Below are positions 55,528 to 64,000 of a stretch of 64,000 bases of DNA, piece after piece. The first letter of the stretch is position 1. Every line of letters begins with the position of its first letter. The DNA lies in the NCBI GenBank assembly GCA_965218555.1, contig OZ244625.1, positions 3,397,303 through 3,461,302 of the forward strand. Direction: 5' to 3'. Below the pieces are notes generated by a model. It ran no database searches. It was not told the origin of the DNA and saw only the letters and a list, made by a program, of their open reading frames with translations. This stretch comes from Bryobacterales bacterium. GTDB taxonomy: Bacteria > Acidobacteriota > Terriglobia > Bryobacterales > UBA6623. Made by a program: the position numbers and the translations under genes.

Positions 55528-55826
55528 GGCTTTGTTCAAACCGTCACCTCGACGATTCACGGTCTCTCACGAAACAACCTGCCCGAGGGGTAGGAGTCGT
55601 ACTCCACACGAACTTCGCATCCCTCGATCGTAATTCCCCCGGTCAGGCCGGCGGGCCGCCCGTCGAGTGAGACTTCGAGCAAGTTCTGTCCCTTGACCGG
55701 CCGAACTTGCTCCAGATGATACTCGAGCTTCTGCCCTTGATAAGCAGCGACGCGCCACGGGAATTCACGCAGACAGGTCTCTTCGCTCAGCGACTCGCCG
55801 TTGAGAAACACGCCCAAGCGGTCGGC
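55528..55826 (-). repeat. Diverged copy of 58046-58343 (3' end of the GH-like gene and sialidase start)
   Basis: About 300-bp alignment with roughly 15 substitutions and 2 small indels. Confidence 0.93.
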
Positions 55827-55915
55827 TCTGTTGAGGGAATGTTTGCGCGGCTGAGCAGGCTCACCGCATGTCCGCAGCGTGAAGCCTTCGGCAGCTTGCT
55901 TCAGATGCGGTGGCC

Positions 55916-56917
55916 TCAGGCTGAATACAGCGGCTCGGCCTGTCCGGCCTTGATCGGCTCGGGTGCGGACTCTCCCTGCATGACTCGGGGCGTGCCACAA
56001 TCGAGCAACATCCGCCGCGCACGCTCACGGAACTTATCGCGGACATCGCGGGTCGGCGGCCGGCAACGGCTGGAAGCAAGGCCGACAAGCTCCATGCAGA
56101 GCTTGTCGAGGTAGCCGTCTCCGCTCGTGTACTGTTCCATCTCGCTCCAGAGCCGATAGAAAGGCATGGCCACGCACATCAGCTCTCGCTGAGCCTCCTC
56201 ATATCGGCGATCTTGCAACATCTCCCAGAGTTTCACTCCCCACTCGGGCCAGTGGTTGCAGATATGGACCTCGATGGCTCGCGCCCCTAGCATGTGACTC
56301 GTCACAAAACGTAACTGGTTGTCGATGATACTCAGCCGATCAGAAAATGACGCCACCACCTGCTCGAACTCTATGAAGCCGCTGTCGGGCGTCGCCCACT
56401 TCAGTCCGACAACGTTGGGGAGCTCGACAAGCCGCTCCGCCAACGACGCCGATACGCCGGTGCTCGTCCAGTAGGTGTTGTAGACGATGATGCCGACCTC
56501 GGCCGCGCCGGAGGCGGCCCGCGCATACTCCAAAAAGTCATCCTCGGTGTGCTTGAAGTAAAACGGCGGCGAGACCTGGATGTACTCCGCACCGCACCGC
56601 TGGGCGGCCTTGGCAAGCTGAACCAGTTCGCTGGTGCTGGTGGTCATCGCGCCCATGACGACGGGCACCCTTCGCGCGGCCTGCTCGACCACCGCCTCAG
56701 TCGCCGCTATTCGCTCGTCGAAGCTCATGGTCGAGAAGTCCCCGGCCGCGCCCGCCACGAGCAAAACACCCGTCCCGGTCTGAATGCCGCCGTCGATCAC
56801 GAAATCGACATGTTTCCTCATTGCCGGCAGGTCGACCGTCAGATCGCCGTCCCGGAACAGCGTCGGAATGGTGACGTAACAGCCGCAGAGCCACCGTCGT
56901 GCTTTCTCTCGATCCAT
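55916..56917 (-). CDS. Dihydrodipicolinate synthase / N-acetylneuraminate lyase family aldolase
   Basis: GAAGDF.TMSFDER, VSPPFY, catalytic YN and GLK. Confidence 0.88.
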   Translation of the reverse strand: MDREKARRWLCGCYVTIPTLFRDGDLTVDLPAMRKHVDFVIDGGIQTGTGVLLVAGAAGDFSTMSFDERIAATEAVVEQAARRVPVVMGAMTTSTSELVQLAKAAQRCGAEYIQVSPPFYFKHTEDDFLEYARAASGAAEVGIIVYNTYWTSTGVSASLAERLVELPNVVGLKWATPDSGFIEFEQVVASFSDRLSIIDNQLRFVTSHMLGARAIEVHICNHWPEWGVKLWEMLQDRRYEEAQRELMCVAMPFYRLWSEMEQYTSGDGYLDKLCMELVGLASSRCRPPTRDVRDKFRERARRMLLDCGTPRVMQGESAPEPIKAGQAEPLYSA

Positions 56918-56926
56918 CGTGGGGGG

Positions 56927-58057
56927 CTAAAGTCCGTCCTTTCCGTCGGTCAGCCACTCCAAGCTGAACCGGGCCATCGCGATCTGTGAATAGCTGTCGG
57001 CCTCGTAAAGGCACAGGATCGTCATATCGGGTGCGATCGCCAGATCCGAATAGGCCGCCGAGCCCGCGTGGAGCACTTTCGCGACGGGGAACGTTTCGCA
57101 TTCGTCGTAGCTCATGCGCACGGTGAGCTGCGCCCGCTCGGTGGGGCTCGAAGGATGAGCCAGCAGCACCCGGTTTTTCCCGTGGAGCTCCGCTCTCGTA
57201 AATCGAACAACGCTTCCCTGCACCGATGGTTCCGGCATGTCCTGGTTGAACCGGACGTCAGACCAGGTTTGCCCTCCGTCCTCGCTCCAGGCATAGGCGC
57301 GCCTGCGCTTTTGCTGCCGGCTGCGCATGTTCATATAGATTCTGCCGGCGGCGGTTTCCACCGACATCGATTCGTCGGAGAGGTCGCTTTCGAGCGGAGC
57401 GCTCCGTTGCCAGGTTGCCCCATGATCGTCGCTGTACATGGCGTAAGAGAACTGGACTTTGCCCCAGCTTGCCGGCCGCCACGTGCGTGGTCCAGGCGAG
57501 GTGTCGCCCCAGCTTGAAATCAGCAGTCTTCCCGACGAGAGTTGAATCCCATGTCCGGGACCGGCCCCGAGATAGCTCCAATTCGGATCGACAACCTGAT
57601 CGGTGATTTCGCGGGGCTCGCTCCAGGTCGAGCCGTTGTCTCGGCTCTTGGAGACAAACACTCGCTGATTGTTCTTGCAAAACACAAGAACTACATCCCC
57701 GGTTTCGCGATCCAAAACCGGAGCGGGCTGATTGACCGACAGGTCACCATCGTCAAAAAGCACTTCGAGAGGTCCCCAAGTCCGTCCTCCATCCCGGCTG
57801 CGCTTGAGAACCAAGTCGATGTCAGCATCGTCCCGGCAGCTATCCCGACGCGCTTCTGAAAACGCCAGGATCGTGCCATCCGCAGCCGCCAGCAATGCCG
57901 GGATTCGAAAGCAATGATAGTCGTCTTCCCCCGCCGAGAAGACGGTCAACCTCTCGACATCGGCAGGGACCTCGACGCGAGCATCCTCTCCCGCAGGCGG
58001 CTCACAAGCGACACACACCGCGACGGCCATCAAGACGGCTACGGCGGCTTTGTTCAA
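56927..58057 (-). CDS. Sialidase (GH33) family lipoprotein
   Basis: Lipobox VAC, FRIP motif, five Asp-boxes (SRDGGRTW, SRDNGSTW, SDDHGATW, SEDGGQTW, SYDECETF), AYSD. TTG start after GAGG. Confidence 0.92.
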   Translation of the reverse strand: MNKAAVAVLMAVAVCVACEPPAGEDARVEVPADVERLTVFSAGEDDYHCFRIPALLAAADGTILAFSEARRDSCRDDADIDLVLKRSRDGGRTWGPLEVLFDDGDLSVNQPAPVLDRETGDVVLVFCKNNQRVFVSKSRDNGSTWSEPREITDQVVDPNWSYLGAGPGHGIQLSSGRLLISSWGDTSPGPRTWRPASWGKVQFSYAMYSDDHGATWQRSAPLESDLSDESMSVETAAGRIYMNMRSRQQKRRRAYAWSEDGGQTWSDVRFNQDMPEPSVQGSVVRFTRAELHGKNRVLLAHPSSPTERAQLTVRMSYDECETFPVAKVLHAGSAAYSDLAIAPDMTILCLYEADSYSQIAMARFSLEWLTDGKDGL

Positions 58058-58082
58058 ACCGTCACCTCTACGATGCACCGTC

Positions 58083-59648
58083 TCACGAAACAACCTGCCC
58101 CGAGGGGTAGGAGCCATACTCCACGCGGACTTCGCATCCCTCGATCGTAATTCCCCCGGTCAGGCCGGTGGGCCGCCCGTCGAGCGAGACTTCGAGCAAG
58201 TTCTGTCCCTTGACCGGCCGAACTTGCTCCAGATGATACTCGATCTTCTGCCCTTGATAAGGAGCGGCGCGCCACGAGAAGTCACGCAGACAGGTCTCTT
58301 CGCTCAGCGACTCGCCGTTCAGAAACACGCCCAAGCGGTCGGCGCTGACGAGATTCTTGATCTCGAGTTGCAGAACGACCTGCCGAACTCGCTTCGGCGA
58401 GGCCGCGATGTCGTCCGCGATCAGAAAAGGAATGGGGTAGCGCCTGCCGGGATCGGCTTCCGTAATTTCGATGGGAAGCGTGGCGTCGTAGCCGAGTTCG
58501 GATGCTCGCTCAGAGCGGCGCCGCTGAATGTATCGCTTGCTCCCTTCACTGATCAAATCGGGATCACCCAACTCGGTCAGAATTCGGCGCTCGGCGTCAC
58601 CAAGAGGCCATTGCATAAACCACGCATAGATCCCATCGACTCCCCGAGCCCAATGGTTCGCCACCACGCCCCGCGCGACTTCCGGGGTCGCATAAATTCG
58701 TACCGGTGAACCCGTCGATTCGTCCTGTACATAGGGCTGCAGCATTCCGTAAACGGCCACGTCATGCTCGTGGGCCCTTTCGACCAGCCATTCGATGGGC
58801 ATATCCGGGTCAAGCGTGAAATCGATATAGAGCAGCGGGACGACGTAGTCCACCAATCCTTCCTCGATCCACGCGCCGACCTCGAGGCCCTGATCGCGGC
58901 ACATCTGCTGGGTCGGATAGACGCGAGCACCGATCTGCTTGTCTTTCCCCGATACGGCGCGGACCATCTTCGAGATCTCCCGCACGTAGTCGGTCAGCAC
59001 CGGTGTGTACTCCGCTACATCTTCCGGCCGCAGGCACAAAGGCATGCCTCCCGGAGCCGCCGCGAAATCCAACTCGACGCCCTCGGTGTCGTACTGCGTC
59101 GCCAACTCTTCCAGGACGGCGAACTGATGACTCCGCACTTCCGGATGCGCCATGCCTCGGCCTTCCGGCATACGAAACTTCGCATCCATCCCGCCGTAGC
59201 TCGACATGCGCACACTGGCGAAAAAATCCATCCCCTTCTCGTGCGCGCGGTCGACCAACACTTGCAGCGGATCAAGTCCGCGAGCCGAGAGACTCTGCAT
59301 GTTCTCCCAAGTGCGCCAGTAGGCGGCCATCGTGAAAGGCTGCTTGTCGGCCCCGAATTGCATGCCGACCTTCGAGGGATAGAAAAGACCGTCGCCTCGC
59401 TCAACGCCGTAGATGAATGTGTCGACCGGCGTGCCCGCCGCCTCGTCCACCGGCCGCCAGGCGTCTTCCATGGTCATGGGAGGCTCAAAAACAAAGAGAT
59501 AGTAGTGACGCGCGTCGTTGAAGTAGATGGTTCGCTTCTCGCGCTTCTCTGGTGAGGACTGCAACTGAGGAGTTGCGGCCGACGCCGTGGAGGTGGAAGC
59601 GGAAGCGCCCGCGAGACCTTGTACGAACCTTCGACGAGTAAAGCTCAC
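58083..59648 (-). CDS. Tat-exported glycoside hydrolase-like TIM-barrel protein (GHL10/DUF187-like)
   Basis: TRRRFV, DPL..LVD.AH.KGM.FFAS.RM, YD.EGVELDF, GVDGIY. GTG start after GGAGGAG. Confidence 0.72.
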   Translation of the reverse strand: MSFTRRRFVQGLAGASASTSTASAATPQLQSSPEKREKRTIYFNDARHYYLFVFEPPMTMEDAWRPVDEAAGTPVDTFIYGVERGDGLFYPSKVGMQFGADKQPFTMAAYWRTWENMQSLSARGLDPLQVLVDRAHEKGMDFFASVRMSSYGGMDAKFRMPEGRGMAHPEVRSHQFAVLEELATQYDTEGVELDFAAAPGGMPLCLRPEDVAEYTPVLTDYVREISKMVRAVSGKDKQIGARVYPTQQMCRDQGLEVGAWIEEGLVDYVVPLLYIDFTLDPDMPIEWLVERAHEHDVAVYGMLQPYVQDESTGSPVRIYATPEVARGVVANHWARGVDGIYAWFMQWPLGDAERRILTELGDPDLISEGSKRYIQRRRSERASELGYDATLPIEITEADPGRRYPIPFLIADDIAASPKRVRQVVLQLEIKNLVSADRLGVFLNGESLSEETCLRDFSWRAAPYQGQKIEYHLEQVRPVKGQNLLEVSLDGRPTGLTGGITIEGCEVRVEYGSYPSGQVVS

Positions 59649-60060
59649 AACTCCTCCTGAGACGTGCAGCCGATCACGACGTTCCGATTCTACCGCCGTT
59701 TCGATTTCCGTCAGCGGCAATGTTCCAGCGGGATAACGCACCCGGATGCTGTGAGGCTTTCAGGACGTGCTCGGTTTTCAATCCGAGTATAGCTCGCGAA
59801 TGTATCTGAACTCCGGTTACCGTTCAGGCAGGCGTTAGCCGAATAGTTCTTGTAAATGATTCATAAAAAATGACTTACTGTTAGTAGTCCGGCTATGTTT
59901 CCCTCGTTGTACGCCTCATTGTAAACGGGAATCTACGGGACCATCGGGGCCGCCCGGGGACCAAGCCACACTCATCTTCCGAGCGCTCCACTCCAGAAGC
60001 CCCGCGATTTCGTCTTCAGTACTTCCGTTTTGCAGCCGCATTCCGTAGTTACTGCGTTTC

Positions 60061-60173
60061 CACAACGATTGCACCAGAGATGCGAAGGTTTCCGCCGCGC
60101 GTTCGGTCAGTGCCTGTCGGGTCTCGCCCGACCGCAGAAGCTCGGGATTCGAGAAGGCCCACTTGAGCTTGAG
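60061..60173 (-). pseudogene. Short remnant of an MmeI-like (type IIL/IIG) restriction-modification gene
   Basis: LKWAFSNPELLRSGETRQALTERAAETFASLVQSL resembles the segment preceding the helical spacer of MmeI-like methyltransferases. Recognised from memory only. Confidence 0.55.
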
Positions 60174-60526
60174 GCACGCCACTTGGCGATGAACTCGTGC
60201 GGCGCCATGGGAGCATTCAGCCTAACCCATCAGAGCCGCAGCCAGCCAGGCGAGCCGAGGCCGTGTACCGGACGATTTCAACGGTCTTCCGGAGGAACAC
60301 CGAACAGGTATCCCCTGACGCCCAGCGTGTGACAGCCGTCCTTGGCTGCGCCAGGCATGGAAACGGCGCCTCGAACGGGTGGACTACAGCCCCGTTCGTG
60401 AAGGCCGGCAGCGGCCCATGAGAGTTGCGTTGACTCTGTCGTTCCTCTTGCTGCGTAGTGTGATATTGACCTCCTCCGTGCCCAAACCCATAATGAGCAC
60501 AGCACTGGAGGAAGGGGTATTCGGTC

Positions 60527-61666
60527 ATGATTGAATGGCTTGGCATTGGCCACCTCTTCGAGCTTTCCCGGACGGAAGCGATTGCGGGGTTTTTCACCCC
60601 GCTGGTGATCTTCGCCGTGTTTTTCCTGGCGCAGCTCATGCTGCCAGGATGGCGGGTTCCCGGCTACGTCATCAATCCGGAGACCGGTGAACCCCGCAAC
60701 TATCGGTTAAACGGTCTTCTGGTGTTTGCAATCGCGCTGATCGTGTGGGCTCTCGGTCTCACCGGGATGCCGCGTGATTGGTTCTACCGCTCCTCGATCT
60801 ATGCTGTGGCTGGCGGAACGGTCTTCACCACGATCTTTACAATCCTAGCGGTGTTCAGCCAGCCGCAAGAAAAGATAAAGAATCCGATCTTGGCGCTGTG
60901 GGTTGGGCGGGCCCAGGAGCTGTCGTTCTTCAACAACCGCTTTGACGTAAAGATGTATTTCTATGTCGTCGGTGGGACGATGTTGTCGCTCAACGCCCTG
61001 TCCGGGGCCGCGTACCACTACGAACTCTTTGGCGAAGACTCCAATCCAGGCGTTTTCCTGTATGCGGCGTTCTTCACATTCTACGTACTGGACTACTTCA
61101 TCTTTGAGCGCGTCCAGCTATATACGTACGATCTGATCCATGAGAATCTCGGCTTCAAGTTGTTCTGGGGCGGCCTCGTGGTCTACGGGTGGCTGTTCAT
61201 CCTCCCGTTGTGGGGCATGGCCGCTTACCCGGACCCCGGTTTCTCGCCGGCAGGGACGTATGTTTGGCTCATCGGAACGGCTGCGCTGTTCCTGTTCGGG
61301 TGGAGCATCTCGCGCGGCGCCAACTTGCAGAAATACACATTCAAGCGATGGCCCGAACGCAAGTTTCTCGGACTCATCGAGCCTGAGTACATTGAGGCCG
61401 GTGACCGCAAGATCTTGTGCAGTGGTCTATGGGGTGTCGCCCGACACTTCAACTACATGGGCGAGGGGTTCCTTTCCCTGTCAATTGCCCTGGTATTCGG
61501 CTACTTCACTAATCCCTGGGCTTGGACCTACTTTGTCTTCATCATCACGCTGTTCACCTTCCGTCAACGTGATGACGACAGGCTCTGTGCCGAGAAATAC
61601 GGCGCCGATAAGTGGGCAGAGTATCAGGCACGGGTGAAGTACCGGATTATTCCCGGCGTTTATTGA
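60527..61666 (+). CDS. ERG4/ERG24-family sterol reductase (delta14/delta7/delta24-type)
   Basis: Multi-TM protein with YRLNGL, YD.IHE.LGF.L.WG, ILCSGLWGVARHFNYMGE, R..DD..C.EKYG..W.EY..RVKYRIIPGVY. Confidence 0.9.
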   Translation: MIEWLGIGHLFELSRTEAIAGFFTPLVIFAVFFLAQLMLPGWRVPGYVINPETGEPRNYRLNGLLVFAIALIVWALGLTGMPRDWFYRSSIYAVAGGTVFTTIFTILAVFSQPQEKIKNPILALWVGRAQELSFFNNRFDVKMYFYVVGGTMLSLNALSGAAYHYELFGEDSNPGVFLYAAFFTFYVLDYFIFERVQLYTYDLIHENLGFKLFWGGLVVYGWLFILPLWGMAAYPDPGFSPAGTYVWLIGTAALFLFGWSISRGANLQKYTFKRWPERKFLGLIEPEYIEAGDRKILCSGLWGVARHFNYMGEGFLSLSIALVFGYFTNPWAWTYFVFIITLFTFRQRDDDRLCAEKYGADKWAEYQARVKYRIIPGVY

Positions 61667-61788
61667 GAGGGCTCCCAGCACCAGCTGCGCCAGTATCATC
61701 GCAAGTTGTTGCTCGTAATAGACTTACTACTGATCACGCTGCCCTGATCCCCTCATCACATCCCTCTTTCCGAGGTAGAATCCATTAG

Positions 61789-63510
61789 CCCGGATATTTC
61801 ACCAGGGGGTAGAAAAAGGGCTGCCTGTTGTGGCATAGAACATTTATGTCCAAAACGTTAGCGCCACAGAAGACAAGCCGCCCTCCGATAACAGAGTGTA
61901 GCCAATCGAGCTTCTCGTTTGGCAAGCACTTTCGCCGCCAAGTAAGCACCCGGTTTGATGGCGGGGTGATCAGCTCCGACGGCGGCGCGCTGCTGTTGCG
62001 CGAGGTCGACCGGCGCATCAAGCTGCTGCCGCGCCTGGCGGTCTGTTTCGAGGACCGCCGCGATCCGCGGCGCATCGAACACCGGGTTGCGGAGCTGGTC
62101 TCGCAGCGGGTGTATGCGCTGGCGCTGGGATACGAAGACCTCAACGATCACGACGAGTTGCGCAGCGAACCGCTGCTGGCGCTGCTAGTGGGCAAGAGCG
62201 ACTTGGAAGGGCAGCAGCGCAGCCGAGAGCGTGATCGCGGCAAGCCGCTGGCGGGCAAGAGCACGCTGAACCGGCTGGAACACAGGACCGACGGTTTGGA
62301 CCGCTACCAGAAGATCTGTTGCGACAGCGAAGCGATCGACCGCCTACGGGTGAACGTGTTCATAGAAGCACACCCGCAGGAGCCGGCCGAGATCATTCTC
62401 GATATCGACGCCACCGACACGCCCTTGCAGGGGCAGCAGGAGGGGCGTTTCTTTCACGGGTACTACGGTCACTACTGTTACTTGCCGCTGTACATCTTCA
62501 GCGGCGAGCACGTCTTGTGCGCGCGGCAGCGGGTGTCGAATCAAGACGCGGCGGCGGGCAGCGTGGCGGAGTTGGAGAGGATCGTGGCGCAGATCCGGGA
62601 AGCTTGGCCGGAGGTGAAGATCCTGCTGCGAGCCGACTCGGGGTTTTGTCGGGACGAGTTGCTGAGCTGCTGCGAGGCGAACCAGGTGGGGTACGTGGTG
62701 GGGCTGGCGCGCAACGAGCGGTTGCGGTCGCTGCTGGAGGAGGCGCTCGCAGAGGCGGCGAGGAGGCAGCAGCAGACGGGCCGGCCGGCGCGGGTCTTTA
62801 GCGAGTTCGGGTATCAGACGCGGCAGAGTTGGAGCCGGGCGCGGCGGGTGGTGGGGAAAGCCGAACAGCTCTCGGGCAAGCAGAATCCGCGCTATGTGGT
62901 GACGTCGCTGGAGGCCCAGAGATGGCCGCCGCAACGGTTGTACGAACAACTCTACTGCCGGCGCGGGGAGGCCGAGAATCGCATCAAGGAGCAGTTGAGT
63001 CTGTTTGCTGATCGCATGAGCAGCGAGACGCTGCGGGCCAATCAACTGCGGCTGTATCTGTCGTCGCTGGCGTACGTGTTGCTGGTGGCGCTGCGGCGGC
63101 TGGGGCTCAAGGGCACACGGTGGGCGCGGGCCCAGACGGAGACGATCCGGCGGGGGTTGTTGAAGATCGGGGCACAGGTGAAGGTGAGCGTGCGGCGGGT
63201 GTACCTGTCGTTGGCCGGCGGCTACCCCGATGAGGAGGCATTCGCGGCGGTGTATCGGGCGTTGCGTCCGCCGGGAGGAGCAACTGTTTGCTAACACGGA
63301 GCGAACCAAAAACGGCGCCCCCAGGGGGCGCAGGGGCGAAGTGTTTCTAGAATCGGCAACAACCCGAAAAACGGACTTTCGCGAGCCGCAATGGGCGACC
63401 TAAAGCGCCCCGTATCGGCCCTCGCCTCCCTCGCCGCGGAGGATTCCGATCTTTAGACTATATTTCGGCCCCTCTCAACCCATCGCAAAGCCGCTGGTGA
63501 GAAAAGGCGG
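61789..63510 (+). mobile_element. IS1380-family insertion sequence (1722 bp)
   Basis: Ends CCCGGATATTTCACCAG and CTGGTGAGAAAAGGCGG (imperfect inverted repeat), flanked by TTAG and CTAG. Confidence 0.85.
61846..63294 (+). CDS. IS1380-family transposase
   Basis: FDGG.ISSDGG, GYEDLNDH, LDIDATD, FFHGYY..YCYLPL, RADSGF, Y..RG..ENRIKE, ANQLRL. Start uncertain. Confidence 0.95.
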   Translation: MSKTLAPQKTSRPPITECSQSSFSFGKHFRRQVSTRFDGGVISSDGGALLLREVDRRIKLLPRLAVCFEDRRDPRRIEHRVAELVSQRVYALALGYEDLNDHDELRSEPLLALLVGKSDLEGQQRSRERDRGKPLAGKSTLNRLEHRTDGLDRYQKICCDSEAIDRLRVNVFIEAHPQEPAEIILDIDATDTPLQGQQEGRFFHGYYGHYCYLPLYIFSGEHVLCARQRVSNQDAAAGSVAELERIVAQIREAWPEVKILLRADSGFCRDELLSCCEANQVGYVVGLARNERLRSLLEEALAEAARRQQQTGRPARVFSEFGYQTRQSWSRARRVVGKAEQLSGKQNPRYVVTSLEAQRWPPQRLYEQLYCRRGEAENRIKEQLSLFADRMSSETLRANQLRLYLSSLAYVLLVALRRLGLKGTRWARAQTETIRRGLLKIGAQVKVSVRRVYLSLAGGYPDEEAFAAVYRALRPPGGATVC

Positions 63511-63726
63511 CTAGATCTCCGAAGACGTTCGCGGACAGGCGGCCCGACGGGTGCGGCCGCGATCGAACGGCACTTGGCCGCTTAGATCGCATTGCGCAAT
63601 AGCCAGCGCCTGGAGGTGGCCATGCGTTTCCCTGCACTCTTGCATGGCCGCCAACATCCCCACAGGTGCGGCCCTGAACCCTGTCAGCGCCTCCGCCGAC
63701 CCGCAGGCGCGAGCGCGGCGATGGGC

Positions 63727-63999
63727 CTAGAGTACTCCAGGGATCACCGCCTTCCGACCGGCCGGATAGTCTGCGAACCGTTCCCGGTACCACCGGTGGT
63801 GGCTGAGTGCTCTCGGGACGAGGTTGGCCCCTGTGTAGGTGAAGAACGCGAGTCCGCCCAGCGACCACGTCGCCACCGCCCACCCGGACCATTCCAGCAA
63901 CTCTCCTAGATAGTTGGGGCAGGAGACGTAGCGGAATGCCCCTCCGTGCGGGATGGAGTATCCGGTTCGGCCGGGCTTGCGCAGGCCGAGCAGGATGTT
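63727..63999 (-). CDS. Steroid 5-alpha-reductase (3-oxo-5-alpha-steroid 4-dehydrogenase) family protein, C-terminal 90 aa, runs off the window
   Basis: Manual translation: NILLGLRKPGRTGYSIPHGGAFRYVSCPNYLGELLEWSGWAVATWSLGGLAFFTYTGANLVPRALSHHRWYRERFADYPAGRKAVIPGVL*. Confidence 0.9.
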   Translation of the reverse strand, partial: NILLGLRKPGRTGYSIPHGGAFRYVSCPNYLGELLEWSGWAVATWSLGGLAFFTYTGANLVPRALSHHRWYRERFADYPAGRKAVIPGVL

Positions 64000-64000
64000 G

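Follow-up and report, generated by a model that had tools for sequence, protein, structure and literature searches.

Is the pair of reductase genes at one end of an acidobacterial stretch of DNA a unit for sterol reduction, or have two genes of separate histories come to lie side by side? The stretch, which we call the window, is 64,000 nucleotides from a Bryobacterales bacterium (contig OZ244625.1; G000:C1:3397303-3461302). Its source genome (G000, the window's own strain) is a single contig of 5.78 Mb that is 96.95% complete. Throughout, G-codes are genomes, L-codes are extracted loci, X-codes are public sequencing runs (contigs), and positions without a code are those of the window. Near its end, a gene for an ERG4/ERG24-family membrane reductase of 379 amino acids (aa), here ERG379, converges on a gene resembling steroid 5-alpha-reductases (SRD5A). 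The original prediction, drawn from this sequence, took the two for a sterol-reduction locus in an "apparent acidobacterium." The latter description fits, as the ERG gene of the congeneric genomes G001 and G005 is identical to Bryobacterales bacterium records. As for the locus, both genes are intact members of the families that had been named, but a conserved two-gene unit is not what we found. The two genes came to lie together recently and do not make up a conserved operon or cluster. ERG379, more than the pairing, is the more interesting object: a self-contained cassette of about 1.2 kb that bacteria of at least 11 labelled phyla have passed among themselves and that is kept under purifying selection.

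The open reading frame (ORF) of ERG379 (60527-61666, plus strand) matched the Pfam ERG4_ERG24 model (PF01222) at 124.2 bits (cut-off, 27; E = 7.7e-36; model positions 76-432 of 432), so the intact 379-aa reductase that the original prediction described is borne out. Residues 28-379 matched the bacterial delta14-sterol reductase MaSR1 in the PDB (4quv; E = 3.8e-36). The AlphaFold model of ERG379 (pLDDT, 94.1; pTM, 0.92) aligned with the same structure in Foldseek (E = 1.9e-17; TM-score, 0.80/0.78; 376 columns). ERG379 thus has the MaSR1 fold and C-terminal cofactor-site stretches identical or similar to those of 4quv, including SG-WG-ARH-NY and RD-D--C--KYG--W. It differs in being 29-30% identical to MaSR1, in its length (379 versus 427 aa, with a shorter N terminus), and in not adjoining sterol synthesis genes. 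Among 58 diverse homologues, W302, G312, R346, and Y366 were invariant, while R306, H307, N309, Y310, D350, C354, K357, Y358, G359, and W363 were nearly so. In MaSR1, these C-terminal residues reportedly bind NADPH. The fold and the conserved residues suggest that ERG379 sits in the membrane and uses NADPH to reduce a carbon-carbon double bond.

The window holds the 3' part of the SRD5A-like gene (63727-64000, minus strand). Its frame there (63727-63999) encodes the C-terminal 90 aa, which aligned with positions 62-150 of 150 of the Pfam Steroid_dh model (E = 3.2e-35). Past the window end the gene is complete (63727-64491): a stop-free gene for 254 aa covering Steroid_dh (PF02544) positions 1-150 of 150 at 161.3 bits (E = 2.2e-47). 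The C terminus that had been recognized therefore belongs to a whole gene, and the worry that it might be a fragment or group with enoyl-CoA reductases can be set aside. The closest PDB chains were true steroid 5-alpha-reductases, the bacterial PbSRD5A (7c83; E = 2.4e-78) and human SRD5A2 (7bw1; E = 1e-45), and the match to the enoyl-CoA-reductase-type chain 22of was far weaker (E = 7.5e-13). PbSRD5A reduces progesterone in vitro (PMC7815742). We took the NADPH-contact residues from the same source and scored them in an alignment to 7bw1, in which the chain numbering is offset by 4. All eight (human N160, D164, R171, N193, E197, R227, H231, and Y235) were identical in the SRD5A-like protein, which is also of the same length class as 7c83 and 7bw1. 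It keeps the Glu and Tyr of the QEY motif (human Q56, E57, and Y91), reading M55, E56, and Y89, and differs from PbSRD5A and SRD5A2 in that Met replaces the Gln, as in nearly all of its close homologues. This protein, too, would be a membrane enzyme that reduces a carbon-carbon double bond with NADPH. For both enzymes, function is predicted from family, fold, and conserved cofactor sites.

Having established what the two genes are, we asked how old their pairing is. We surveyed the genomes of 60 relatives, 6 of which belong to the window's own genus. The ERG379 and SRD5A-like genes occurred together only in that genus, where four of six genomes carried both and two carried neither; the remaining 54 relatives had neither gene at a meaningful level. 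In none of the four congeners with both genes were the two linked. They lay about 0.79 Mb apart in the complete genome G001, about 0.72 Mb apart in the complete genome G005, and on separate contigs in G002 and G006. By blastn, the SRD5A locus of all four congeners read GHL10-like gene, 78 bp, 115 bp, SRD5A-like gene, without an ERG gene. The congeners' ERG gene sits at another conserved locus rich in a 183-bp repeat, and the same locus in G000 has no ERG gene and only a degenerate copy of the repeat. We also considered G003 and G004 as outgroups for the ancestral empty site and rejected them as too diverged and rearranged (77-83% nucleotide identity in dispersed blocks).

Comparison with the loci of G001, G005, G002, and G006 by blastn, and with a contig of run X23, defined a 1,971-bp insert in G000 (59701-61671, plus strand). 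It is particular to this strain lineage and takes the place of 78 bp out of the ancestral spacer between the GHL10-like and SRD5A-like genes. Its left part (59701-60437) is a 737-bp mosaic of fragments of other repeats of the genus, without a recognized gene. Only pieces of about 100-160 bp, 72-92% alike, matched elsewhere (G000, G001, G002, G005, and G006), and no recognizable element was found when the mosaic was compared with the related locus L026. The rest of the insert carries the ERG379 cassette. Downstream lies the left half of the ancestral spacer that follows the SRD5A-like gene (61672-61785; aligned with L017 9535-9649 and L019 9399-9514), then an IS1380-family insertion sequence (61786-63513, plus strand), and then the right half of the spacer (63514-63726; aligned with L017 from 9652 onward). 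The transposase ORF (61828-63294, plus strand; 488 aa) matched the NCBIfam IS1380 model NF033539 at 379.1 bits (cut-off, 180), and the inverted ends of the element are TAGCC..CACCAG. G000 has four full copies with the same ends, the three besides the window's being near-identical, plus partial copies. As the original prediction had it, an IS1380 lies between the two genes, with a gap then put at about 340 bp once it is removed; we measured 119 + 213 = 332 bp from stop to stop.

The IS1380 insertion is a simple, later event. The site is empty and contiguous in G001 (L017 9649/9652), empty in G005, and free of the element in contigs of runs X1, X5, and X7. The X23 contig joins 59700 to 61672, skipping the 1,971 bases, and represents the form without the insert. 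The X5 and X7 contigs, each of 361 nt, begin within the ERG ORF, of which they hold the last 49 bases, and cross the junction into 63512-63706 without the element. Because insert-free and IS-free contigs each capture one step, the cassette came first and the insertion sequence later. The arrangement is not an assembly artefact, and the pairing is recent and particular to this strain lineage. The insert brought the cassette to 332 bp downstream of an SRD5A-like gene already resident at the genus locus, and IS1380 then inserted between the two.

Three side observations concern the ERG gene and its surroundings in the genus. In contigs of X1 (with a side of 44 nt and 5 extra letters) and X7, position 60472 is connected to about 61614-61618, with almost the whole ERG ORF absent; either a deletion variant or a join made by chance with another organism's sequence may explain this. 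In the congener G006, the ERG379 gene is spread over two contig ends (G006:C29:1575-2234 and G006:C4:2623-3156) that overlap in residues 202-220, which reflects either an assembly break or an insertion within the gene. The repeat of about 183 bp is partly self-complementary, with 230 blastn matches in G000, of which 149 are of at least 150 bp (e.g., L016 1986-2168, 6799-6981, and 9341-9523). Other genomes of the genus carry it as well, with a concentration near the ERG locus of the congeners, and its form resembles that of a miniature inverted-repeat element.

If the pairing is young, the cassette itself has traveled widely. A homologue search returned 1,091 proteins at E <= 1e-10; the best 120 were 83-93% identical and nearly all 379 aa long. 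Species-representative genomes, when scanned, yielded 534 matching stretches; our locus counts use the best 80 of the 534, which showed 82-95% protein identity. Their labels span Terriglobia/Bryobacterales, Vicinamibacterales, Thermodesulfobacteriota, Dadabacteria, Candidatus Binatia, Nitrospirales, Gemmatimonadota, Latescibacterota, Opitutales, Dehalococcoidia/Chloroflexota, and Acidimicrobiaceae, along with a "Deltaproteobacteria" record and a Rhodospirillaceae "Spongia" bin. The shared segment is confined to the gene. Of the 21 kb of the Binatia locus L033, 1,186 bp aligned to G000 (92.7%), and in the Terriglobia locus L030 the gene was 95% alike to that of G000 and the flanks were 68-82% alike. 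Across 81 loci, conservation started at about -35 and had faded to background at about +12 past the stop. A purine-rich ribosome-binding stretch lies within the conserved segment on the 5' side. A consensus scan identified a promoter-like site with 10 of 12 matches (TTGACC, 17-nt spacer, CATAAT; 60466-60494, plus strand) 33 bp upstream of the ERG start codon, inside the common cassette. Both promoter hexamer regions recur in L030 and L031 (both Acidobacteriota) and in L075 (Dehalococcoidia), and the site is, by pattern match, a putative promoter. The cassette thus comprises the ORF, its conserved ribosome-binding region, and, in some lineages, the promoter-like site. No neighbor gene was common to more than 10 of the 80 loci, and those that recurred (short-chain dehydrogenase, TonB-dependent receptor, CoA-transferase, and others) were lineage specific.

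A DNA tree of 84 copies was shallow, with branches of 0.003-0.17 and very short internal branches. It contained single-phylum clades, with 18 Chloroflexota copies, for example, falling together. Synonymous divergence (dS) between the G000 copy and others was 0.10 to L030 (Terriglobia), 0.20 to Binatia, 0.21-0.36 to Thermodesulfobacteriota, 0.46 to Nitrospirales, and 0.69 to Dehalococcoidia, so that copies in other phyla span 0.20-0.69. Seven ordinary syntenic genes compared between G000 and its congeners gave 0.16-0.34. Set against these genes, the values place the cross-phylum spread of ERG379 on the time scale of divergence within a genus. The median ratio of nonsynonymous to synonymous divergence (dN/dS) was 0.16 over 3,318 pairs. 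When 400 other genomes from 228 genera of the phylum were sampled evenly, none carried the tight ERG379 family, and one genus had homologues that were 44-45% identical. In public runs, the summed contig depth was 260-1650 over the ERG ORF versus 0-115 over the 737-bp mosaic, a difference that fits many different community organisms with copies at least 90% alike. The protein atlas gave family-level leads only. At 50% clustering, the family collapsed to one full-length representative, the next full-length relatives were 50% and 43% identical, and the nearest sister group consisted of bacterial metagenome proteins of 363-368 aa. The SRD5A-like gene likewise crosses phyla. A copy in the Vicinamibacterales genome G089 was 87% identical (dS, 0.30), and copies in Thermodesulfobacteriota-labelled genomes were 84-85% identical (dS, 0.57-0.60).

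The next question is where a substrate could come from. We found no match for squalene epoxidase and none for cytochrome P450 in G000, and no real squalene/oxidosqualene cyclase, the hits being weak partial cyclase-domain matches in unrelated long proteins. Any sterol substrate of this bacterium would therefore be exogenous, and the earlier preference for sterol modification over synthesis, which had been based on the window, is upheld genome wide. The 15 kb past the window end contain genes for amidohydrolase, Nramp-like, acyl-CoA dehydrogenase, SurE, cytochrome c peroxidase, old-yellow-enzyme-like, phosphotriesterase, aldolase, glycosyltransferase, and symporter proteins, with no sterol-specific gene among them. 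Neither CYP51 nor cyclase was among the recurrent neighbors within 5 kb of the 80 ERG loci. In 40 other ERG379 genomes, 31 had no oxidosqualene-cyclase-type match and 23 had no PF13243 match at all at E <= 1e-20. The nine with a cluster-type cyclase were assigned by cluster context (two) or by score and frame length (seven). These mostly cyclase-free genomes indicate that ERG379 is largely independent of de novo sterol synthesis.

Taken together, the data are best explained, and in our view probably so, by real and intact genes that were recently juxtaposed, with ERG379 arriving as a mobile cassette and the enzymes working independently on exogenous sterols. The substrates would most likely be sterols or 3-oxo-steroids taken from outside, the source probably being an animal host and perhaps a sponge. 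The two enzymes probably act independently, and a single route to 5-alpha-stanols is a possibility.

Several observations weigh against parts of this explanation. In the gene tree, the G000 copy grouped with L030, L034, and a Binatia group, apart from the congeners (SH-aLRT, 96). The approximately unbiased (AU) test did not reject a single clade of G000 plus congeners (p = 0.187), and the dS of this gene between G000 and its congeners, 0.26-0.28, is at the genome-wide level. We had considered certain re-acquisition of the G000 copy from another lineage and dropped it after these two comparisons. Two histories fit: G000 may have relocated its old copy, with its lineage later donating the gene to others, or it may have lost the old copy and taken up a foreign one. 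The substrate is a further point. ERG379 scores 109-124 bits against the Pfam model, compared with 235-250 bits for the ERG24 paralogue found in complete sterol clusters, to which it is 33-37% identical; the low score and identity leave room for a substrate that is not a sterol. At the QEY Gln position, 121 close homologues of the SRD5A-like protein (66-100% identical) carried Met (118), Leu (2), or Val (1). In a genome of 5.78 Mb, the cassette also came to lie 332 bp from the SRD5A-like gene. Of the 16 ERG379 genomes among the 40 that have a strong SRD5A-like gene, 5 hold the two genes at 16-28 kb. This landing and the proximity in two lineages are hints of a link that independent action leaves unexplained. 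Finally, a sponge-associated community is suggested by one label, one run, and one match of phylum lists.

The hint of a link belongs to the first alternative, in which the genes, brought together by selection, would work as a two-step unit that turns sterols from the host or the environment into saturated 5-alpha-stanols or steroids. Both families use NADPH to reduce steroid carbon-carbon double bonds, the genes are present or absent together in the genus, and the close arrangement persists in other runs. The spacing beyond the genus was 17-22 kb in G065, G067, and G070 and 16 and 28 kb in G091 and G100. In G065, the stretch around and between the genes holds LolA-like, methyltransferase, GPP34-P450 fusion, amine-oxidase-like flavoprotein, MMPL transporter, and KshA-type Rieske protein genes, in a genome in which a cyclase was not found. 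However, G065, G067, and G070 are one lineage and G091 and G100 share synteny, and so these cases reduce to two events. The pair was never found within 10 kb at the 80 ERG loci. It was unlinked in all four congeners with both genes. Of the 16 other genomes that have the two, 11 showed no linkage either, the distance exceeding 700 kb or the genes lying on different contigs; 24 of the 40 had no strong SRD5A-like gene. The convergent orientation makes a shared transcript impossible. Such a unit would require a 3-beta-hydroxysteroid dehydrogenase/isomerase to act between its steps. No candidate for one stood out; PF01073 was uninformative, with matches in 14 of 14 control genomes. The original prediction had made linkage in other genomes its touchstone; linkage was largely missing there, and what stands is the joint presence or absence in the genus and the 5 of 16 genomes with the genes at 16-28 kb. 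A link between the genes is suggestive, resting on two or three independent events, and we consider a two-step unit possible but unlikely.

Two features of these linked stretches are recorded here as observations. The fusion in G065 (L124:9849-11867), a genome of 1.9 Mb, is a 672-aa protein of GPP34 (Golgi phosphoprotein 3) and cytochrome P450 encoded between the SRD5A-like and ERG379 genes. Its assignment as a CYP51 was unclear and was not adopted, since the CYP51 match in the PDB reached only 4e-21, other P450s scored nearly equally, and it was 20% identical to the cluster CYP51. In G070, the stretch between the intact ERG379 gene and the SRD5A-like gene also holds a fragment of a second ERG379-like copy (G070:C1:959635-959883; residues 298-379; 68% identical), with one in-frame TAG.

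The second alternative is that the family names mislead and that ERG379, the SRD5A-like protein, or both act on the bacterium's own nonsteroid isoprenoid or membrane lipids, such as polyprenols. The missing sterol pathway of G000 and the cyclase-free majority of the other ERG379 genomes agree with this, as do the separate branch that ERG379 occupies and the Met in the substrate-holding motif of the SRD5A-like clade. On the other hand, the fold and cofactor site of ERG379 match those of a sterol reductase, and the SRD5A-like protein is far closer to steroid 5-alpha-reductases than to the enoyl-CoA-reductase type. Moreover, a family nearly confined to one kind of community and absent from the 400 sampled relatives suits a substrate from outside better than a housekeeping lipid. 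We think this alternative decidedly unlikely. The last alternative takes the genes for leftovers or members of a de novo sterol synthesis pathway in this organism. It draws on the complete clusters of two genomes that also carry ERG379 (G075 and G066) and is very improbable, given that the nearly complete G000 lacks the synthesis genes and that the cluster ERG24 is a different paralogue.

Those two clusters (L126, G075:C1:796001-814000; L127, G066:C5:733001-751000) contain, in this order, a sterol methyltransferase, a Rieske protein, the ERG24 paralogue (363-366 aa), a P450, a fused squalene epoxidase-cyclase, and an MMPL protein with a sterol-sensing domain. The fused squalene epoxidase-oxidosqualene cyclase ORF is 1,189-1,269 aa long. 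The cluster-type ERG24 paralogue was present in 8 of the 40 other ERG379 genomes. Steroid clusters of sponge symbionts are described in PMC9531527 (Kelly et al. 2022), which reports that ERG24-type genes are enriched in these symbionts, are under purifying selection (omega, 0.13), and have been horizontally transferred. The phylum list of ERG379 equals the list given there for symbionts of the sponge Ircinia that bear steroid genes, and the cluster type is the one that we recovered in G075 and G066. In contrast to those clusters, ERG379 is a separate, stand-alone paralogue with no conserved neighbor. In the literature on sponge-symbiont sterol reductases, 7-dehydrocholesterol reductase, and MaSR1, we found no stand-alone, near-uniform ERG4/ERG24 cassette crossing phyla, and the "scattered" ERG24 counts in PMC9531527 may include the family. 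One ERG379 record is labelled Spongia, and a run labelled "sponge metagenome" was rich in contigs that match the ERG ORF at 90% or more.

The host-associated bacterium Coxiella reportedly has a delta24 sterol reductase while making no sterols. Sterol reductases are also enriched in sponge-associated chlamydiae, according to PMC9666466, which cites Gilk et al. (2010). By description, these cases follow a like logic, an ERG4/ERG24-type enzyme without a sterol pathway and a presumed use of host sterols. They are intracellular bacteria, whereas ERG379 is found in many phyla of extracellular symbionts.

The remaining surroundings in the window are as follows. Upstream of the insert (55916-59741) lie genes for a DHDPS/N-acetylneuraminate-lyase-like protein, a BNR sialidase-like protein, and a 552-aa GHL10-like protein with a twin-arginine-type N terminus, a set that looks like one for the use of host glycans (sialic acid). 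A frame on the minus strand (55557-56000) duplicates the last approximately 85 aa of the GHL10-like protein. Rfam gave no matches across 59000-64000.

What does a traveling reductase gene mean for these bacteria? In the ERG379 cassette we have a clear case of one gene having crossed between phyla very recently, without recognizable mobility machinery. It stands alone as a paralogue, unlike the published whole clusters, and is far more uniform across phyla. As ERG379 mostly occurs without a synthesis pathway, it points to modification of host sterols rather than to synthesis. A bolder reading, which we put forward tentatively and regard as unlikely on present evidence, is that ERG379 is a promoter-bearing, community-wide adaptation cassette that swept through the phyla of one host type, probably sponges, and enables bacteria incapable of sterol synthesis to reduce one particular double bond of host sterols. 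Together with the Met-Glu-Tyr SRD5A, a variant that likewise crosses phyla, it would give symbionts a route to the sterols, saturated in the ring or side chain, that occur in such hosts. On that reading, bacteria would be responsible for some of what passes as the host's "own" sterol profile and for some of the sterane record that derives from it. The gene is small and equipped with expression signals of its own, and the structure of a relative has been solved, so its reaction is directly testable. Sterol-type genes in host-associated bacteria bear on how symbionts handle host lipids and on the reading of fossil steranes as animal biomarkers.

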